This document shows positions 16,236 to 24,455 of a stretch of 64,000 bases of DNA, one piece after another. The notes beneath the pieces were generated by a model. The model did not search any database, was not told the DNA's origin, and saw only the letters and a program-made list of their open reading frames with translations. The DNA comes from a virus (lineage: Duplodnaviria; Caudoviricetes). The position numbers and the translations under genes are program-made. The stretch's first letter is position 1, and every line of letters begins with the position of its first letter. The stretch lies in IMG/VR virus record IMGVR_UViG_3300032300_000824, positions 32,001 through 96,000 of that record. One strand, 5' to 3'.

Positions 16236-17916
16236 GTTTAGGATCTTTTAGTTTTGAATATTCTATGAAGTCTTCGGTTATGGTTTCGTTTCTGTTCAAA
16301 AAACTTATTACCGTATTATTATTTCCTATAATGGTATTGAAGTAATCTACGGCATTTTTCCAATCATATGGTGTTATTTTTTGATTTTCCATTTGAAAAC
16401 CATTTTTGAGTTTTTGTAAAATATTTAGTATAAAATATGAGTCAATACTATATGTATCATTTAGATATTCTGAACATATTTGTGATAGCTTTGTAAGATC
16501 AGAACCGGGAGAACTTATAATGTCTTGTAAATTCAAGAGTGGCTTCAAAGGTTTTTTCTTAAACATATCATATTTATCTAATGGACTTTTATTTTTTTCT
16601 TCTAAGATATACTCTAGTCTATGTTCCCATTTTTTAATAATGTTGTCCCAATTAAAATGTTCAATACATAAATTTCTTGTTTTTATTCTTTTTTGAAACC
16701 TCATAGGATATGGAATCCTAATGAACTTACTTAATATTTCGACTAGACTATTATTATCTGGATAAGCTCTATATGCTTGCGTTTCTAATTCCTTAAATAA
16801 AGTAGCTATATTTACTGGATATGCTTCTATTTTATTAACTATGTCCTCCATTGCACTATATGGAATAGTTACTATTGGTACTCCACAAGCAGCAGCTTCA
16901 ACTTGAGGCATCCCAAATCCTTCACAGATAGAGTACTGAACATAGATATCAAAAGCATTAAAGATGGATATCATTTGGTCTTGAGTAACTCCATCAGTAA
17001 CTGTTGGAAATGCTGCTTCTCCTTTACAATGAACACAACTTCTATGAGAACCAGAATATACATCAGAAAATATTTTACCACAATTTTTACACAAGTAGGT
17101 AAAAAGTGTTCTGTTCAACATCCTGTTTTCTTTTAGTATCGACGGAATATCCCATCCTAAATAATCTGGATATCCAGTATGAAGATATAGAAAAACTTTT
17201 TCTGCTAATCCAGACGACTCAGACTCTAACTTATCTATTAGCAGTCTTGTTGATTTGATTAGTTCTGGAATCAATTTTCTTTTTTGGTTTCTCATTACAG
17301 AACCGATAATGATATTATCTGAACCTATTTTTAGACTAGATCTAACTTGATTAGATTCTAATATCCTATATTTTGTTGTATCTATACCTGGGGAAGCAGT
17401 ATCAATGTAGTTGATCTGTCTAGAAGTTTGAGACTGTAAAACATCTCTAGCCCAATCAGAATATGTAAAAACAGAATCTGCACCAGAGTATGTGTCCAAC
17501 CATTGTTCTTGTTGAGGATATGAATCAACAGTTGGCATTATCATCCAGTGATAACACTGTCTCATAGGAGAATATGCTTGATACGAATTCATCCAATAAT
17601 CTCTAATGTCAATAACAACGTCTGGTCGAAAATCTAAAAGAGTTTTTTCAAAACGCCATTTCCCAAATTGATTATCTAGATTTAAGGAATATTCACTGAA
17701 TCTGGGATCGTTGTTTCTTACTGCGTTAGCATAGTATCTCCAGGAAGTTTCTGTGTCTCTGGTGTCATTTACAAAACCATAACAAGCTAATTCAGCAACA
17801 TGGAACCGTGGGTTTTTACTGAGTCTACCTAGAAGTTCTTTACCGTATACTGCGTAACCGGTACTTAAAAAGCTTGCTTCATTACAGACTAAAATTTTAA
17901 GTTTCTTATCTTGCAT
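16228..17916 (-). CDS. GT4 glycosyltransferase with CxxC...CxxC insertion
   Basis: STGY, RNQKRK and EGFGMPQVEAAACGVP motifs, plus a CKNC...CVHC insertion. Start likely at MQDKK (17916), because the upstream ATG lies in a terminator hairpin. Confidence 0.85.
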   Translation of the reverse strand: MQDKKLKILVCNEASFLSTGYAVYGKELLGRLSKNPRFHVAELACYGFVNDTRDTETSWRYYANAVRNNDPRFSEYSLNLDNQFGKWRFEKTLLDFRPDVVIDIRDYWMNSYQAYSPMRQCYHWMIMPTVDSYPQQEQWLDTYSGADSVFTYSDWARDVLQSQTSRQINYIDTASPGIDTTKYRILESNQVRSSLKIGSDNIIIGSVMRNQKRKLIPELIKSTRLLIDKLESESSGLAEKVFLYLHTGYPDYLGWDIPSILKENRMLNRTLFTYLCKNCGKIFSDVYSGSHRSCVHCKGEAAFPTVTDGVTQDQMISIFNAFDIYVQYSICEGFGMPQVEAAACGVPIVTIPYSAMEDIVNKIEAYPVNIATLFKELETQAYRAYPDNNSLVEILSKFIRIPYPMRFQKRIKTRNLCIEHFNWDNIIKKWEHRLEYILEEKNKSPLDKYDMFKKKPLKPLLNLQDIISSPGSDLTKLSQICSEYLNDTYSIDSYFILNILQKLKNGFQMENQKITPYDWKNAVDYFNTIIGNNNTVISFLNRNETITEDFIEYSKLKDPKHE

Positions 17917-17928
17917 ATTTTTGATATG

Positions 17929-17954
17929 AAAAAGGGCTATGATAAACATAGCCC
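17929..17954 (-). terminator. Intrinsic terminator downstream of ssb
   Basis: GGGCTATG-TTTAT-CATAGCCC 8-bp stem followed by TTTTT on the - strand. Confidence 0.75.
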
Positions 17955-17988
17955 CTCTTCAACCCCACTTCCATTTATATAGTTTTGT

Positions 17989-18360
17989 TTAGAATGCTAC
18001 GGGTTCTTCAGTAGCTTCAGTCTTCTTAGATGAAAGCTTAGTGATCTTTGAAAAATTATTAACGCGAATTTTCAAAGACGAATGCTTAACACCATCCTTC
18101 TCCCAAGAGTCGTTCCTAATAGACCCTTCTACCAAAACTAGATCGCCCTTGTTAAAAGACTTTCCAATTATTTCAGCACCAGTATCCCATGCCTCACAAG
18201 GAATAAAAGATGTGATCTTATCCTTTGTTCCATTTGCCTTAGTGTACTCTCTTGAGGTAGCAACTGTAAAATTTACAACAGAAGTATCCTTGCCTCCGGT
18301 ACTAATTGACCTTAGCTCTGGATCTCTAACTAGATTGCCTCTAACAATAACAATATTCAT
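17989..18360 (-). CDS. ssb: Single-stranded DNA-binding protein
   Basis: GNLVRDPELR, FIPCEAW and KGDLVLVEGSI motifs, with the acidic tail EEPVAF. Confidence 0.95.
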   Translation of the reverse strand: MNIVIVRGNLVRDPELRSISTGGKDTSVVNFTVATSREYTKANGTKDKITSFIPCEAWDTGAEIIGKSFNKGDLVLVEGSIRNDSWEKDGVKHSSLKIRVNNFSKITKLSSKKTEATEEPVAF

Positions 18361-18408
18361 TTCAAAATCTCCTTAAAATTTAAAAAACCAAAACCAACGA
18401 ACTACAGT

Positions 18409-18437
18409 ATTATACGACGAGGGCGAGAATGCGTCAA
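18409..18437 (-). promoter_or_regulatory. sigma70-type promoter upstream of ssb
   Basis: TTGACG (18437-18432), a 17-nt spacer, then TATAAT (18414-18409). Confidence 0.8.
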
Positions 18438-20050
18438 GTCATGGGTATATAACATTTCTCTACGACGAGATCACTCTTTTTAAACGACTTAGTACCTTGG
18501 AAAATCAGAATATTTCCTTCAAATAATTGATTTCTATATAGGGCAAGTTGCTCTGTAAAAAATATTACTGAGTCTATGTGACCGGTTCCATCAGCTATGC
18601 TAACAAACGCCATCTCGCTACCCTTGTTTTTACCATTCTTAATTTTGATTACATTAACATTATCTATCTCTCCTGCAATAATAATAGTTTTTCTCTGAGA
18701 ATCCTTAAATTCTTTACACGTAGTATTGGTCATACTAACATCATAAGAATCAACTTTAGAGTAAGTTAAATTAATACCTAATAAATTGCTTTCGTTATCG
18801 CATATCCACTCAATTTTATCTTCTAACGAATAGGGTGGCTTTATAAGAGACATAGATAATGATTGTATAACATTTCTGCGATTTTGTGTTATTCTAGGTT
18901 TCTTAAGCAAAATATTAGCTAGTTGCAATACATTAAAATCTTTTATTCCTATAGAGATTAAATATTCTAATTCTTTGGATGTTAATTGACTAACTATTTC
19001 ATATTCAAATAACATCTCTGTCCTGCCTTTTGATAGATAATTCAACGCTCCAGAACAAATCAATGCTTTGGCTGCTGTTGAGTTTATGTTTACCAAAAGA
19101 TATAATAATATCTCTGTCCAGTTTAAATTTTGCACATCTAGGTGCTGTGATATCTCTACTATTTTTTTATAGACAGATTCTCCAACACCCTTAATGTCTG
19201 TAAGACCAAAATAGATCTTATTATTTTTGATAACAAAAAACTGATTTAATAATCTGTAGTCAGGAACACAGATATCAATATCCATCTCTGTTGCATTTTT
19301 AACCAATTCTTTAATTTCTTGCTGTGGATCTATCTTATCTTTTGCATACTTAAGATATGCTGCAAAAAATATCTTTGGAAAATGTGACTTACTGTATGCT
19401 GAAAGATATCCATTAATAGCATAACTTACGGCATGTGATTTGTTGAATGAGTATCTCTGAGATTTTTCAATCCAACTGAAAATTTGTTCAGCTTCATTTT
19501 CTGAGACAAGAGCAACTTTTTTACAACCTTCTATGAAGATCTTTTTAAGTTTAGCCATCTCTTCTGGTTTCTTCTTTCCAATAGCTTTTCTTAATTTATC
19601 AGCTTCCTGTAAATCGAAACCGGCAATTTTTTGAGCTATTTCCATAGCCTGTTCTTGATAAACCATCTCTCCAAAGGTAGTTTTAAGTATGGGTTCAAGG
19701 GCAGAATTAAAATAGTCTATAGACTCCTGGCCATTTTTCTTATCTATAAAGTGATTGCTAACAGTTTTACCGTCTCTAATAGCTTCCAAACATCCTGGCC
19801 TCATGATACTAATAAGAGCAGAAAGTTCTTCTATATTAGAAGGCTTCAGCTTTTTAGCCATGCTTTGTCCAAGACGAGACTCAAGCTGAAAACATCCTTT
19901 GGTATTTCCAGACGAAAGCATTTCCCAAGTTCTAGAACAGTCCAAATTGATATTGCTCATATCAATAGAAAAATCTATTTTGGGTATGTCCCCAGTAGAC
20001 TGTCCGATTACTGGGAATCTACAGCCGCAATCAAATGTATAATATTCCAT
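18434..20050 (-). CDS. dnaE: DNA polymerase III alpha, C-terminal half (fingers, HhH, OB)
   Basis: GCFQLES, RPG, VYQEQ, ADKLRKAIGKK, YSFNKSHA, FGLTDIKGVG and the OB-fold MAFVSIAD motifs. Confidence 0.92.
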   Translation of the reverse strand: MEYYTFDCGCRFPVIGQSTGDIPKIDFSIDMSNINLDCSRTWEMLSSGNTKGCFQLESRLGQSMAKKLKPSNIEELSALISIMRPGCLEAIRDGKTVSNHFIDKKNGQESIDYFNSALEPILKTTFGEMVYQEQAMEIAQKIAGFDLQEADKLRKAIGKKKPEEMAKLKKIFIEGCKKVALVSENEAEQIFSWIEKSQRYSFNKSHAVSYAINGYLSAYSKSHFPKIFFAAYLKYAKDKIDPQQEIKELVKNATEMDIDICVPDYRLLNQFFVIKNNKIYFGLTDIKGVGESVYKKIVEISQHLDVQNLNWTEILLYLLVNINSTAAKALICSGALNYLSKGRTEMLFEYEIVSQLTSKELEYLISIGIKDFNVLQLANILLKKPRITQNRRNVIQSLSMSLIKPPYSLEDKIEWICDNESNLLGINLTYSKVDSYDVSMTNTTCKEFKDSQRKTIIIAGEIDNVNVIKIKNGKNKGSEMAFVSIADGTGHIDSVIFFTEQLALYRNQLFEGNILIFQGTKSFKKSDLVVEKCYIPMT

Positions 20051-20051
20051 T

Positions 20052-20753
20052 TTAAGATGATATGGTATTGAATGAATCCTTAAACTTTACTTTTGCCCCA
20101 AGTTTCCTGTGCAGCTTTAGAAATCTAATCATGATTTCTGCTGAGTCTTTAACATCTTTTAGTGCATCATGAGCACCCTCTTTAGAAATACCTAAATAGT
20201 CTCTAAGATTATCGAGAGAATAACTCTTTAGGTCTTTTGATGCTTCAAACCAATAAAAAATTAGATTCATAACGTCAATAACATCTCTCGGATAAAATAA
20301 TGAAGAATTACCTTCTTTATTTACGTTTTTATACTTCACACTTAGTTTTTGCATAATGGGAAGATCGAATCTATTGATGTTATATCCTGCTGCAATTGGT
20401 GCTGTGAAGCAAGATTTTCTATCTGATCTAATATGGTACATCTCTAGATATGACGTAAACATCTTCCATCCTGCTTCTTGCTTTGGATAAGATTTCCAAG
20501 ATTCGAGGATGTCGTCTTTTGCACACCCTCGGACCTTGGCATGGAAATCTAATACATCAGAATCTTCGTATGCATAACTTGCATCTTGATCTAAAGCAGC
20601 TGGCTTGAGATTAATATTGAATTCTGAATCAGAAATAATCTCTAGCTTAACTGGATCAACCATAATAGCGGCTATCTGAACTGGACTGCAAACATTAGGA
20701 TCTTTACCATCTGTCTCTAAATCGAAAACACAAATTTTTTGATTATTAGCCAT
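20052..20753 (-). CDS. DEDDh 3'-5' exonuclease (DnaQ/epsilon-like)
   Basis: ExoI FDLET, ExoII YNINRFD and ExoIII HDALKD are all intact. Confidence 0.9.
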   Translation of the reverse strand: MANNQKICVFDLETDGKDPNVCSPVQIAAIMVDPVKLEIISDSEFNINLKPAALDQDASYAYEDSDVLDFHAKVRGCAKDDILESWKSYPKQEAGWKMFTSYLEMYHIRSDRKSCFTAPIAAGYNINRFDLPIMQKLSVKYKNVNKEGNSSLFYPRDVIDVMNLIFYWFEASKDLKSYSLDNLRDYLGISKEGAHDALKDVKDSAEIMIRFLKLHRKLGAKVKFKDSFNTISS

Positions 20754-20931
20754 TTGTAATTACCGAGGTGCCAGGAGCAAAAAAAGTTCTACCAACCGCG
20801 TTGGCAACATCTTCTGCATTATGAGATTTACAACAACTAACCTTAACATTATCTATTTTTCTATAAGTTATGTCTGAGCCAGGAACTTTAAATTCTTGAC
20901 CAACATTCAATTCAGAAAATAGCTTATTCAT
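20746..20931 (-). CDS. Small hypothetical protein (about 61 aa) inside the split-dnaE operon
   Basis: GGAGGT SD before the ATG at 20931. Overlaps the dnaE-N stop and the exonuclease start. Contains SCCKSHN. Confidence 0.7.
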   Translation of the reverse strand: MNKLFSELNVGQEFKVPGSDITYRKIDNVKVSCCKSHNAEDVANAVGRTFFAPGTSVITNG

Positions 20932-22801
20932 AACTACCTCCATTTTTCAAAAGTGTACTAACGGCCATTACTTTATCTAACATAGCTACGCCTAAAATAT
21001 CAAACTTGATGATACCCATAGTTTCCAAGTCTTGCATTTCCATGCCAGCTATTTGTTGTTTATTCTTTGTGTCATAAACCATGGGACACAAGTTCCCAAG
21101 TTTTTGATCAGTAATAACAATTCCGGCCGCATGTTTAGACTGGTTAACCTTGGTGCCTTCAAGTCTGATCGCCTGCTCAAACCGTTTTGCTAGAGGACCA
21201 GACAGAAGACCATCGTCATTAATATAACACCAATTCTTGAGTTTGTCAACATTATTTTCTAAGGCCCACTGTATTATGGAAGCTTCTCCGAATTCTTCTT
21301 TCATTTCTTGAAGTTCGTCGGCAATCTTAGCTTCATCTGGTATGCTTTTGGTTATTTCATTCATTTCGTCGAAAGTAATATCTCCATAAACTCTTAGAAC
21401 GTCTTTAAGAGCCCCTCGACCTTTAAGAGTGTTGAAAGTTACCATTTGAGAAACATTTTCTACCCCGTACCTATTCTTAATATAGTTGATGACTTCTTCT
21501 CTTTTATTAATTGGTACGTCAACGTCAATATCTGGCATGGAAATTCTACCATCTGTGTTTCTACCAGCATTATAGAATCTTTCAAAGATTAGACTATATT
21601 TAATAGGATCAATACTAGTAATACCAATCAAATAAGAGACCAAACATCCAGCCGCCGAGCCTCTTCCTGGCCCCGGTAGCCACCCCTTATCTCTTACAAA
21701 ATTGACGATATCGGACACTATTAAAAAATAGCTAGACAGACCAGCCCCTTGTAAAACAGACAGTTCAAATTTGATTCTTTCGGCATAATCGTCTTGTTGT
21801 AACTTATCGATATTATTACTAATCTTTTCTCTCCAACCATCTCTACATAATTGTCTAAGAAATTCGGCCGGATCATTTCCTTTACATTCAAACGGGGGAA
21901 GCATTGGCCTATGAGAAATATCATAATTCTCACACATACTATCTATAAGATTAGTATTCTCTATTTCTTCTTCTGTGTGTATTTTGGACATTTCTTCTGG
22001 AGAAAGAATATAGTAATTGTCAGATATAAAAAAGGTAGACATTGGTACAGACTCATGATTAACTATTTTTCTGTTAATGTCTGAGAATGTCATCTTTAGG
22101 TTATTACACAACAATATTCTCTGATCTATAGCGTCGTCTTTTTCTGCATAGTGCGCATCCGGTGTGCAGATAATTTTCGTGTCTGTTAGTTTAGCAAGCT
22201 GTCTTATGCAGTCTGTTAGAGGAGCTTGTGCCTTATTATAAGACTGGTCCATTAGCTGTGCTTCTAAAAAGAAGTTGTCCTTTCCAAAAGCATTTTTAAG
22301 CATACCTATTTTTTCAACACCGATTGTTTGCCAGTTTTTTGAAACAGAATCTGAGTCAGTAATGTGATTAGCTATATACGAACCAAGATGTCCGCAGAAT
22401 CCTATTAGATTACCATCAAGAAACTCAGAAAGTTTTTCTATACTTAGTCTAGGCTTTCTGTAGAAATAATCTTCTTTATTTGATTCTGAGATAATTTTAA
22501 CTAATTGTTGCCATCCTTTTAGATTTTTGGCTAACACAAGAAAATGATGAAGCTCATCCTCTTTATTTTTAACAGAGGGGTCATTGTCACAAATATAAAG
22601 TTCACAACCTAAGATGGGTTTAATCCCATCCTTTTTAAGAGTGTTGTGAAATTGTACTGTTCCAGCAATATTTCCATGATCTGTCAAGGCGCAAGATCCA
22701 ACTCCTATTTTTTGACATCTTTTTGAAATTTGAGCCGGTTTACTTAATCCATCTAATAAACTGTAGTGAGAGTGGACGTGTAGGGGAATATAATTTTTCA
22801 T
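20924..22801 (-). CDS. dnaE: DNA polymerase III alpha, N-terminal half (PHP, palm, thumb)
   Basis: PHP motifs LHVHSHYSLLDG, TDHG and DAHY. Polymerase motifs GRGSAAG, PDIDVD, HAAGIV and KFDILG. Confidence 0.93.
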   Translation of the reverse strand: MKNYIPLHVHSHYSLLDGLSKPAQISKRCQKIGVGSCALTDHGNIAGTVQFHNTLKKDGIKPILGCELYICDNDPSVKNKEDELHHFLVLAKNLKGWQQLVKIISESNKEDYFYRKPRLSIEKLSEFLDGNLIGFCGHLGSYIANHITDSDSVSKNWQTIGVEKIGMLKNAFGKDNFFLEAQLMDQSYNKAQAPLTDCIRQLAKLTDTKIICTPDAHYAEKDDAIDQRILLCNNLKMTFSDINRKIVNHESVPMSTFFISDNYYILSPEEMSKIHTEEEIENTNLIDSMCENYDISHRPMLPPFECKGNDPAEFLRQLCRDGWREKISNNIDKLQQDDYAERIKFELSVLQGAGLSSYFLIVSDIVNFVRDKGWLPGPGRGSAAGCLVSYLIGITSIDPIKYSLIFERFYNAGRNTDGRISMPDIDVDVPINKREEVINYIKNRYGVENVSQMVTFNTLKGRGALKDVLRVYGDITFDEMNEITKSIPDEAKIADELQEMKEEFGEASIIQWALENNVDKLKNWCYINDDGLLSGPLAKRFEQAIRLEGTKVNQSKHAAGIVITDQKLGNLCPMVYDTKNKQQIAGMEMQDLETMGIIKFDILGVAMLDKVMAVSTLLKNGGSYE

Positions 22802-23841
22802 TCAACGCTTCCTGGTGCCTTGTATTTAGCCACAGTATACCCTGGAACAGTGTATTCGTCAACCACGTTGTTTATACCTTTTAGCTCGATATCGTGCTTA
22901 ATTTGTTCACATTTGGTCATATGGGTATTTTTTTGACATAGCTGGTTGTCTCTATACTCCAGTATCGGCAAGACACTAGAGTTTTCAAAAGTACTTTTTC
23001 CAAAATGGCAAAGTTTACTACACATCCAACTCTTATGCAGTCTTGGTTTTTGTGTTTTCTTGATAATTTCAAATTTATCTCTAAGCATAGATTCAGTCTT
23101 AGGAAGATCTGACTTATCAAAGATTACGCTAAAAGCGCCGCCATCATTAATAAAGAAGATTGTAACCATAATATGGTCTATGTGAGGATATAGTTTTTGA
23201 ATAGCGTAATGATATATTCTTAATTGAGGATCTTCTTCTAATTTCTCTTGGGTCTTTTCTTGACCAGTTGCCCAATTTAATCTTCTTCCAGTTTTCCAGT
23301 CAATAATTTCTATAGTGTTATCTCCAACCTGGGTTATTAGGTCGATAGTTCCTTTTATAGCCAAATTACCCTCAAGAGTACCTTCCGCTAATTTATACTT
23401 ATATTTAGACCAATCCTTCTCTATTACTATATCAAAGTGTTGTTCTGGACATAAAATATTTCTATTTCTAGGATCAAACATTCCATTGTTATACGTTATG
23501 GCTTTTTCAACCCAAAGTCTACAATCTGTAAAATCTTTTATAGACCACTTATGATGGGAAAATCTACTACTATAGTATTGATATACTTGTTCAGTTAAGG
23601 TATCTATATTGTATGCTTCAACATTAACCATACCCACTATATCATCTTCAAAAGTTGTAACATTATTCTGTTGACTTTGTTTGATAATAGCTAGTATTTC
23701 TAGAACCTTGTGTACTATAGTTCCCTTGTCTGCCTTTTGATTGCTTGGCCCCCTATATCCTAATACGTATTCAAAAAAATACTGTTGCTCGCACATAGAA
23801 TGCGTATTATAAGACGAGCTTCTAAAGTATGTTATTATAAT
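22798..23841 (-). CDS. Cas4/RecB-like PD-(D/E)XK exonuclease with probable Fe-S Cys ligands
   Basis: GTIVH, GTIDL, IIDWKTG and QLRIY motifs, with Cys at MCEQ and WMCSKLC...C. Extended upstream to an ATT at 23841 to include RSSSY. Confidence 0.85.
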   Translation of the reverse strand: MIITYFRSSSYNTHSMCEQQYFFEYVLGYRGPSNQKADKGTIVHKVLEILAIIKQSQQNNVTTFEDDIVGMVNVEAYNIDTLTEQVYQYYSSRFSHHKWSIKDFTDCRLWVEKAITYNNGMFDPRNRNILCPEQHFDIVIEKDWSKYKYKLAEGTLEGNLAIKGTIDLITQVGDNTIEIIDWKTGRRLNWATGQEKTQEKLEEDPQLRIYHYAIQKLYPHIDHIMVTIFFINDGGAFSVIFDKSDLPKTESMLRDKFEIIKKTQKPRLHKSWMCSKLCHFGKSTFENSSVLPILEYRDNQLCQKNTHMTKCEQIKHDIELKGINNVVDEYTVPGYTVAKYKAPGSVE

Positions 23842-24455
23842 GAGAATATTCCTTTGTCTGATAGAAATTGTAATATGATATTGTTCTTTTCATCAAGATT
23901 CATTCCGATATTTTGAATAACCAGATCAAACTTGTTCCAATCGTATACATCTTTATCCAAAGCTCTCTCACTATTAGACTCAGAAGCAAAAGGGTCCAAA
24001 GCAAGCCTAATTACATAACCCCCAGCGTTTTGAATTGATTCAACTTCATTAGGAAATCTGCAATCGGCTATAATTGCCAAGTCTACGTCTTCTTTTTTGA
24101 TTTTATTTATGGTTGCATCAACCCACACGTTGGTTTTCATTTTACGAAATATATTAGTTCCAACATGTTCCATAATTTGTCTAGCAGACATGTGTCCTGA
24201 TGTTTCAAAAGATTCATTGTAGTCTGGCATATCTTTCCAAGTAATGTCAGTTAATGTATTCTTATGTTCATCACTACCATAGCATTGTTCATATGTTAGT
24301 CCTAAAATATTAATACAAATATCTTGTTTTAAAGGATCAGCAAAACTATATATCTTATTACTAAGTCCCAAATTACGAGAATTAACAACTGATTGAACAT
24401 ATTCTGCAGAGGTGCTTTTTCCTGATTGTTTTCTTCCTGCAAAAGCTAAAATCAT
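23835..24455 (-). CDS. Deoxynucleoside monophosphate kinase (T4 gp1-like)
   Basis: GRKQSGKST, FADPLK, RQIMEHVGT and DCRFPNE motifs. Confidence 0.88.
   Translation of the reverse strand: MILAFAGRKQSGKSTSAEYVQSVVNSRNLGLSNKIYSFADPLKQDICINILGLTYEQCYGSDEHKNTLTDITWKDMPDYNESFETSGHMSARQIMEHVGTNIFRKMKTNVWVDATINKIKKEDVDLAIIADCRFPNEVESIQNAGGYVIRLALDPFASESNSERALDKDVYDWNKFDLVIQNIGMNLDEKNNIILQFLSDKGIFSL

Follow-up and report, generated by a model that had tools for sequence, protein, structure and literature searches.

A question is raised by the arrangement of replication genes in the stretch of phage DNA described here (the window: 64,000 nucleotides, bases 32001-96000 of the 129,884-bp IMG/VR virus record IMGVR_UViG_3300032300_000824, estimated 94% complete, GC about 0.33). 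In this uncultured freshwater phage the sequences expected of a DnaE-type polymerase are found in two separate open reading frames (ORFs), here called N-half and C-half, and about 873 nucleotides (nt) between them are filled by two other genes, encoding a micro-protein of 61 amino acids (aa) and an exonuclease. Is this a broken gene, a gene whose pieces are joined again after transcription or translation, or a polymerase working as two chains? The last answer is likely: the replicative polymerase would be a DnaE made as two polypeptides, which associate non-covalently. A sequence-only reading of the locus had proposed a non-covalent multi-subunit C-family replicase, and this is still the reading best supported by the conservation described below. 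Physical association of the subunits, activity, a proofreading role, metal binding and an order of assembly are what we infer from the data. The features concerned are the following, in window coordinates.

20924..22801, minus strand: DnaE N-half, 625 aa; PHP, palm, thumb and a tail of about 24 aa after KFDILG (Pfam PHP and DNA_pol3_alpha)
20927..20998, minus strand: tail of the N-half, residues 602-625, LGVAMLDKVMAVSTLLKNGGSYE
20937..20941, minus strand: GGAGG Shine-Dalgarno sequence of the micro-protein gene, read directly, within the last codons of the N-half (N-G-G)
20746..20931, minus strand: micro-protein, 61 aa, an SH3/KOW-like five-strand barrel in the AlphaFold2 (AF2) model, with 34 homologues
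20827..20838, minus strand: S-C-C-K of the micro-protein, residues 32-35, at the tip of the beta3-beta4 hairpin (alignment and AF2; strands 22-30 and 36-41)
20052..20753, minus strand: DEDDh (DnaQ-like) 3'-5' exonuclease, 233 aa (RNase_T, phrog_192, invariant DEDDh residues)
20070..20093, minus strand: C-terminal peptide of the exonuclease, K-V-K-F-K-D-S-F, residues 221-228, a candidate docking motif (tails of 62 distinct exonucleases)
18434..20050, minus strand: DnaE C-half, 538 aa; fingers, HhH beta-binding-type domain and OB fold (Pfam)
19937..20050, minus strand: head of the C-half, residues 1-38, with C8-x-C10 and C38, a candidate metal knuckle (alignment and AF2)

The relation between the two DnaE ORFs may be judged on PHROG 405, a phage DnaE profile of 1190 positions: the N-half covers positions 41-613 and the C-half positions 616-1076, so that the two ORFs appear as abutting pieces of one polymerase. 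The domains follow the order of DnaE-type enzymes, with PHP and then a Pol-beta-like palm with three aspartates on the first polypeptide, and fingers, HhH and OB on the second; the single continuous polypeptide of about 1,000-1,200 aa typical of DnaE is replaced by two ORFs. The N-half matches Pfam PHP (E 3e-35) and DNA_pol3_alpha (3e-74, profile positions 2-260 of 260, ending at residue 604), scores above the cut-off of TIGR00594 (477 vs 434 bits), and is aligned to structures in the PDB (Taq alpha 7-626, Mtb DnaE1 3-589, with residue 609 corresponding to Taq alpha 626). Its catalytic aspartates, D426, D428 and D601, show no variation among 33 diverse N-halves. The C-half contains DNA_pol3_finger (9.5e-49, the match beginning at residue 28 with position 19 of the profile), HHH_6 and an OB fold; the finger motifs RKAIGKKK and YSFNKSH are intact, and residue 28 is aligned to Taq 642 and to E. 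coli 584. Its AF2 model (pLDDT 91.8) is matched by Foldseek to the Taq, Mtb and E. coli alpha subunits at E 1e-22 to 1e-20. The equivalog NCBIfam DnaE models remain far below their cut-offs for either half.

The position of the break can be defined closely. The third catalytic aspartate, D601, lies in KFDILG and the N-half ends at residue 625, about 24 aa later. The sequence-only reading placed the break at the boundary between palm and fingers: this is right within about 20 residues, but the break does not fall exactly at the Pfam domain border, since the last 21 or so residues of the N-half correspond to the first 18 or so positions of the finger model. In unsplit relatives (P0184, for example) this model begins 2 residues past the K-x-D-x-L-x motif, while in the C-half it begins only at profile position 19: the N-half thus retains a short opening segment of the finger model (VAMLDKVMAVSTLLKNGGSYE).

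The four genes are tightly packed. The stop of the N-half and the start of the micro-protein share an 8-nt overlap, ATGAATAA; the stop of the micro-protein and the start of the exonuclease share another, ATGGCTAA; a spacer of 1 nt separates the exonuclease stop from the ATG of the C-half (TAAAATG), for which no obvious Shine-Dalgarno sequence is seen. The micro-protein ORF, 20746-20943, would encode 65 aa at its longest, and 61 aa from the ATG at 20931, which has GGAGG 5 nt upstream. The description of the gap as a 61-aa ORF and a complete DEDDh exonuclease, with overlapping or adjacent starts and stops, is therefore borne out by ORFs and junction sequences, and the packing fits a probably coupled translation of the four genes.

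The split is not peculiar to this phage. A word-indexed protein search with the N-half, cut at E<=1e-20, produced 7,391 proteins; the best 120 homologues (68-97% identity, on contigs up to 232 kb) are all 620-633 aa long and contain PHP and pol3_alpha only. More distant relatives were obtained by an exhaustive HMMER search of 1.84 billion representatives of 50% clusters, from which the nearest 150, at 38-65% identity, were taken. The protein ends 12-48 aa (median 20) past the K-F-D-x-L-G motif in 116 of the 150; another 27 are missed by the motif pattern, most of them having the same length and aligning to their ends, and only 7 are longer than the split N-half. Among the longer relatives are four continuous DnaEs (P0184, P0201, P0220 and, with an intein, P0172) and two proteins, P0174 and P0189, which are continuous across the junction and whose C-termini show partial N-terminal intein-splicing matches downstream of the fingers. 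In P0316 the N-half is fused, at the point where others stop, to a C-terminal, circularly permuted YpsA SLOG domain (PF12694, 1.6e-35).

Within IMG/VR, at least 549 stretches among 591 candidates encode relatives, and 84 viral loci, with N-halves of 48-100% identity, were fetched for comparison of gene order. Synteny in related phages had been proposed as a check, and it holds: N-half, exonuclease and C-half follow each other on one strand in 74 of the 84 loci, and eight others are cut by contig ends. The gene between N-half and exonuclease is variable, and additional genes are inserted between exonuclease and C-half in five loci (L057, L059, L075, L079, L080): the conserved unit is therefore N-half, exonuclease, C-half.

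No element able to rejoin the two halves was found. Hint and intein families give no Pfam match in either half, and the unaligned flanks, about 16 aa at the tail of the N-half and 27 aa at the head of the C-half, are too short for the Hint fragments of a split intein. The classical cyanobacterial intein site is uninterrupted in the C-half, where it reads YSFNKSH. As a positive control, the same Pfam library finds inteins in the relatives P0172, P0178, P0185, L052 and L053 (the last two with C-halves of 755 and 796 aa). The claim that both halves are intein-free, with YSFNKSH intact, is thus confirmed. Nor does Rfam produce any match at E<=1 in 17900-23900, on both strands, and no homing endonuclease lies between the halves, the intervening genes encoding instead the DEDDh exonuclease and the 61-aa beta-barrel. 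As for the inteins of the relatives, some with LAGLIDADG, they are located in the N-half near GRGSAAG (P0178, P0185) or in the fingers of the C-half (L052:8751-11018, L053:8621-11011); P0186, near residue 64, and P0200 carry large inserts. The clade has been repeatedly invaded by inteins, yet the main break is without one.

These data bear on the explanations that do not involve a two-chain enzyme. An assembly artefact, or the recent disruption of a single gene, has practically no chance of being the cause and is refuted by the data: the identical locus is present on another IMG/VR contig (L001), while contigs from Logan, of an independent freshwater study (runs X3 and X4), contain 18400-21265 in one piece, including all three junctions, at 97.4% identity and without indels. 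These contigs differ from the window by substitutions only, 37 of the 40 listed strain differences in this segment being at third codon positions of the respective frames, and the same architecture recurs in 74 loci and thousands of proteins. The halves might alternatively be joined after translation or at the RNA level, by a ligation not of the Hint type, by trans-splicing or by ribosomal bypass. Nothing positive speaks for such a joining, and it is highly improbable: besides the lack of Hint blocks and intron models, the gap encodes two proteins conserved in their own right, varies in relatives from about 0.7 to about 3.4 kb and carries different genes there, and conservation at the protein level extends over the tail of the N-half and the start of the C-half alike. 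Two irregularities were met among the contigs. In one low-depth X4 contig, 252 bases of the N-half, at 21682-21935, are replaced by 255 others, probably from a divergent co-occurring strain; at a contig end, L046:7400-7525 repeats N-half residues 360-401 in inverted orientation, which is probably an artefact of assembly by fold-back.

It may also be asked whether the halves form a polymerase at all, or whether the phage relies on the replicase of its host, the N-half serving, for example, as a PHP nuclease or pyrophosphatase and the C-half in DNA binding. In favor of this idea, neither a clamp nor a clamp loader is encoded: PolA, PolB, a second DnaE, a beta clamp and a clamp loader were all looked for in the 130-kb, 94%-complete record, and none was detected. 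Against it, the catalytic triad and the finger motifs are invariant in relatives down to 38% identity; the two halves are kept together with the exonuclease, adjoining DnaB, primase and SSB; and the strain differences fall almost all at synonymous positions. A non-polymerase role is accordingly very unlikely. According to the ORF annotation, the replication block around the split-polymerase genes includes DnaB, a primase, a dNMP-kinase-like gene and a Cas4-like nuclease upstream, and SSB downstream.

The exonuclease is recognized by Pfam RNase_T (2.8e-10) and by phrog_192, "DNA polymerase exonuclease subunit" (4e-21). Residues D11, E13, D130, H195 and D200 are invariant in 62 of 62 distinct relatives, and correspond to the motifs Exo I (D-x-E), Exo II (D) and Exo III (H-x4-D). 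The protein is distant from solved DnaQ-type domains: its best PDB match is a PolC-type exonuclease domain (E 1.7e-5), and the epsilon models of NCBIfam give E-values of 4e-4 to 2e-3, well short of their cut-offs. Its C-terminus carries a peptide of the form K-[VI]-K-F-[KR]-x-[SA]-F, found in most of the clade, with a [KR]-F-x-x-[SA]-[FM] core down to about 30% exonuclease identity; this KFKxSF tail is a candidate short linear docking motif. Encoded between the two halves, the enzyme is most likely the proofreading subunit of the split polymerase complex.

The new N-terminus created by the split has features of its own. The C-half begins with about 27 residues which are extra with respect to E. 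coli and Taq alpha, and AF2 folds them into a beta-hairpin with a CxC motif at its turn (pLDDT 84-90 for residues 1-30), C38 being located just before the first finger helix. C8 and C10 are found in 54 of the 63 distinct C-halves compared, C38 in 58 of them and C87 in 55. The unsplit P0184, P0201, P0220 and P0172 have a short loop in this place, with no CxC and an Asp at position 38, and an Asp is also found at the equivalent position of E. coli and Taq alpha. On these alignments the CxC...C head is an innovation of split forms, where its probable role is to stabilize either the N-terminus created by the cut or the contact of this terminus with the N-half, perhaps through a bound metal. The sequence-only reading had pointed to the CxC cysteines: together with C38 they are conserved across the split clade and absent from unsplit relatives, while the metal site it proposed between them and the micro-protein is not supported.

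Of the two ways in which the cysteines might bind a metal, one is a zinc knuckle confined to the C-half, arisen with the split and either stabilizing its N-terminus or latching the N-half, a possibility compatible with the two-chain polymerase and standing at slightly less than an even chance. The frequencies of C8, C10 and C38, the replacement of C38 by Asp in unsplit and cellular enzymes devoid of CxC, and the position of CxC at the turn of a confidently modeled hairpin all agree with it, and C87 might provide a fourth ligand. C87, however, is found in unsplit relatives too; CxC is missing from 12 split loci, five of which also lack C38; the DnaE of phage phiT1, described below, is split without CxC; and no Cys or His column of the N-half, looked for in the alignment as a possible fourth ligand, was found to covary with CxC. 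Up to 5 of the 12 loci without CxC replace several PHP histidines (N-half positions 42, 86, 138 and 217), H138Y and H217Y being found in five. These may be the same loci as the subclade which also lacks C38 (L071, L072, L074, L079, L084), in which case the PHP metal site of this subclade may be degenerate.

The other way is the metal clasp suggested by the sequence-only reading, in which SCCKSH of the micro-protein and DCGC of the C-half would jointly bind a metal holding the complex together. It has some appeal: SCCK and CxC are both strongly conserved where present, the CC is exposed on a hairpin tip in the AF2 model, and the micro-protein has just two cysteines, so that a metal site would need a partner. 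In the 35 available sequences, S32, C33, C34 and N38 are invariant, and K35 and A39 are found in 90% or more; the SH following SCCK is not conserved. No co-occurrence of the two motifs is seen, however. Over 74 loci, micro-protein and CxC are both present in 35, the micro-protein alone in 7, CxC alone in 27 and neither in 5: CxC is found in 83% of the loci with micro-protein (35/42) and in 84% of those without (27/32), with no association, and a shared site is therefore not supported. Furthermore, six loci, representing four distinct sequences, have nothing at all between N-half and exonuclease, leaving no room for any such gene (L054, L063, L075, L076, L078, L081), and apparent distant homologues, identified by eye, have C-G-C (L042) or no Cys (L050, L053). 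The clasp, which does not survive the co-occurrence test, retains only a small probability.

The micro-protein itself has 34 homologues of 57-65 aa and no match in Pfam, NCBIfam or the protein atlas; a marginal match to a PHROG of unknown function, phrog_34455, is seen at E 0.006. Modeled by AF2 with the alignment of its homologues, it forms the five-strand barrel listed above (pLDDT 91.5). Its structural neighbors in the PDB are generic SH3/KOW-like domains (L2, EF-P domain I, eIF5A, FeoA; Z <=5.4), and those in BFVD are small uncharacterized proteins of many unrelated phages, such as Escherichia phage EP335 (TM 0.85), a wide distribution which again speaks against a clasp. The SCCK protein is encoded between N-half and exonuclease in 42 of the 74 loci, and the N-half identity is at least 55% in nearly all of these; other small ORF families or larger inserts fill the slot in some other lineages. 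It is, then, a lineage-specific SH3-like accessory in a variable slot, and not a required clasp. Other occupants of the slot include a uracil-DNA glycosylase (L031:7914-8462, PF03167, 1.4e-33; also L033, L042 and L060), a 37-aa zinc ribbon (L062, L065) and a family of 73-76 aa marked by "ICRINDYY...YQVH" (L071, L072, L074, L079, L084).

Taken as a two-chain polymerase, the complex would work as follows. PHP, thumb, the palm with its three aspartates and a first short finger helix are all carried by the N-half; the remaining fingers, with the residues holding the incoming dNTP and the template, are on the C-half, together with HhH and OB. As the catalytic aspartates and the fingers are on separate halves, the active site would be built across the interface, and neither half would polymerize alone. 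The DnaQ-like exonuclease would be translated from the same message, by tightly packed and probably coupled starts, and the gene order N-half, exonuclease, C-half may mirror the order of assembly.

To approach the history of the split, 142 N-half regions were placed in a FastTree tree, for which the unsplit DnaEs of three phages (Bacillus phage Andromeda, Geobacillus phage GBK1 and Streptomyces phage Faust) served as root. An aquatic clade, with 132 split rows, has 100% local support, and the six rows continuous across the junction form two nested, well-supported groups. With the chosen root three label changes are needed, so that a single old split with two later re-fusions is the most economical interpretation; given the weak deep nodes, it is a lead and not a result. 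A more ambitious account may be built on it, in which a whole, very abundant aquatic clade has an obligately two-chain polymerase: its cut was fixed once, long ago, its fingers subunit then acquired a CxC...C metal knuckle as a latch, the proofreader gene stays within the cut so that the subunits are made in the order of assembly, and a single chain was twice restored. In this complete form the account is speculative and less likely than not.

Some observations weigh against the picture drawn so far. In L045 and L047 (52-53% identity) neither strand encodes an exonuclease or a C-half within 6 kb of the N-half: the genes need not be adjacent, and in these two genomes the partners may be encoded elsewhere. 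RNA sequencing runs containing the stretch were looked for, and none was listed. The metal-ligand positions of PHP in the N-half appear intact by eye (HVHSH, DHG, HH, GH, DAHY), and the PHP domain, not the DEDDh enzyme, could therefore be the proofreader. Finally, the tree was built by FastTree and many of its deep nodes are weak.

The locus can be compared with several known systems. Single-chain DnaEs, from bacteria (Taq 2HPI/3E0D/4IQJ, E. coli 2HNH/5FKU, M. tuberculosis 5LEW/7PU7) and from phages, agree with the present enzyme in domains, domain order, catalytic motifs and finger motifs; the present chain, however, is cut about 24 aa past the third Asp, the exonuclease and 61-aa genes lie in between, and the CxC hairpin is added. 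Phage DnaEs in GenBank are 30-34% identical, with 34% as the maximum, and those of Andromeda (gp41), GBK1, Faust (gp61) and gut contig MT838831 are single genes; at the DNA level, the sole match among GenBank phages is one of 164 bp, in Chryseobacterium phage MA9V-3. In the E. coli Pol III core, too, a C-family polymerase is accompanied by a DEDDh proofreader on a chain of its own and by a third, small protein, but the alpha subunit is one chain there, and the tail of the present exonuclease, K-F-K-x-S-F, is not the alpha-binding segment of epsilon. Theta (HolE) has a helical fold, whereas the micro-protein is modeled as an all-beta, five-strand barrel.

A parallel for the cut is seen in Rossellomorea phage phiT1 (PV767480.1; L086, 2489-5771), a cultured soil phage with two genes annotated, with no remark in the record, as "DNA polymerase III subunit alpha", gp20 and gp18. 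They are cut at the homologous loop, the N-half ending ...KFDLLGLKTLKVIQNSVDQINQGVAV and the C-half starting MFDILDIPLDD, with a 49-aa ORF (gp19) between. The proteins are about 33% identical to those described here; the gap lacks an exonuclease, the SCCK protein and the 49-aa ORF are not related, and the C-half begins without CxC. The placement of phiT1 relative to the aquatic clade has a support of 27. In Bacillus phage vB_BceM_WH1 (LC597490.1; L087, 2911-7109) DnaE is annotated in three pieces (gp235-237), interrupted at other sites by unannotated gaps of 400-700 nt, which may be introns or homing elements.

In cyanobacteria DnaE is likewise in two pieces: Wu and colleagues reportedly described in 1998 a split gene with a split intein. 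The "fractured genes" of marine metagenomes also consist of adjacent pieces with a gene between, in their case a homing endonuclease, and the products carry N- and C-terminal Hint fragments which ligate them (Dassa et al. 2009, PMC2677866). The present case differs from both in having no Hint fragments, an uninterrupted YSFNKSH, another break site and a DEDDh exonuclease between the halves. For T4-like jumbo phages, Iyer et al. (2021, PMC7824862) predict that two free-standing proteins make up a minimal Pol III alpha core between them: these are encoded by distant genes, lack PHP, HhH and OB, and accompany a family B replicase, while the enzyme described here is a full-length DnaE, cut once, and the sole polymerase found. 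No published description of the N-half, exonuclease, C-half architecture of a split DnaE was found in the open-access literature, where searches led only to the split-intein, fractured-gene and jumbo-phage cases just described and to general surveys.

To our knowledge, the catalytic subunit of characterized cellular Pol III alpha is in the end a single chain, whether synthesized as such or ligated by an intein. The locus would represent an evolutionarily stable natural form of this enzyme, with catalytic carboxylates and fingers on different polypeptides and no splicing element, occurring in thousands of environmental phage genomes and, with a site-matched split, in at least one cultured phage. 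The loop between palm and fingers would thus appear as a permissive fission point. For annotation, either half alone is now named "DNA polymerase III subunit alpha", and pipelines could take such a locus for a broken gene. The KFKxSF tail of the exonuclease, the CxC hairpin and the SH3-like micro-protein are candidates for new contacts between polymerase and accessory proteins, and the operon offers a testable case of gene order matching complex assembly. If the whole clade does replicate with an obligately two-chain polymerase, the communication between palm and fingers in Pol III alpha could be studied in a natural system, and a ready-made split polymerase scaffold might be at hand.

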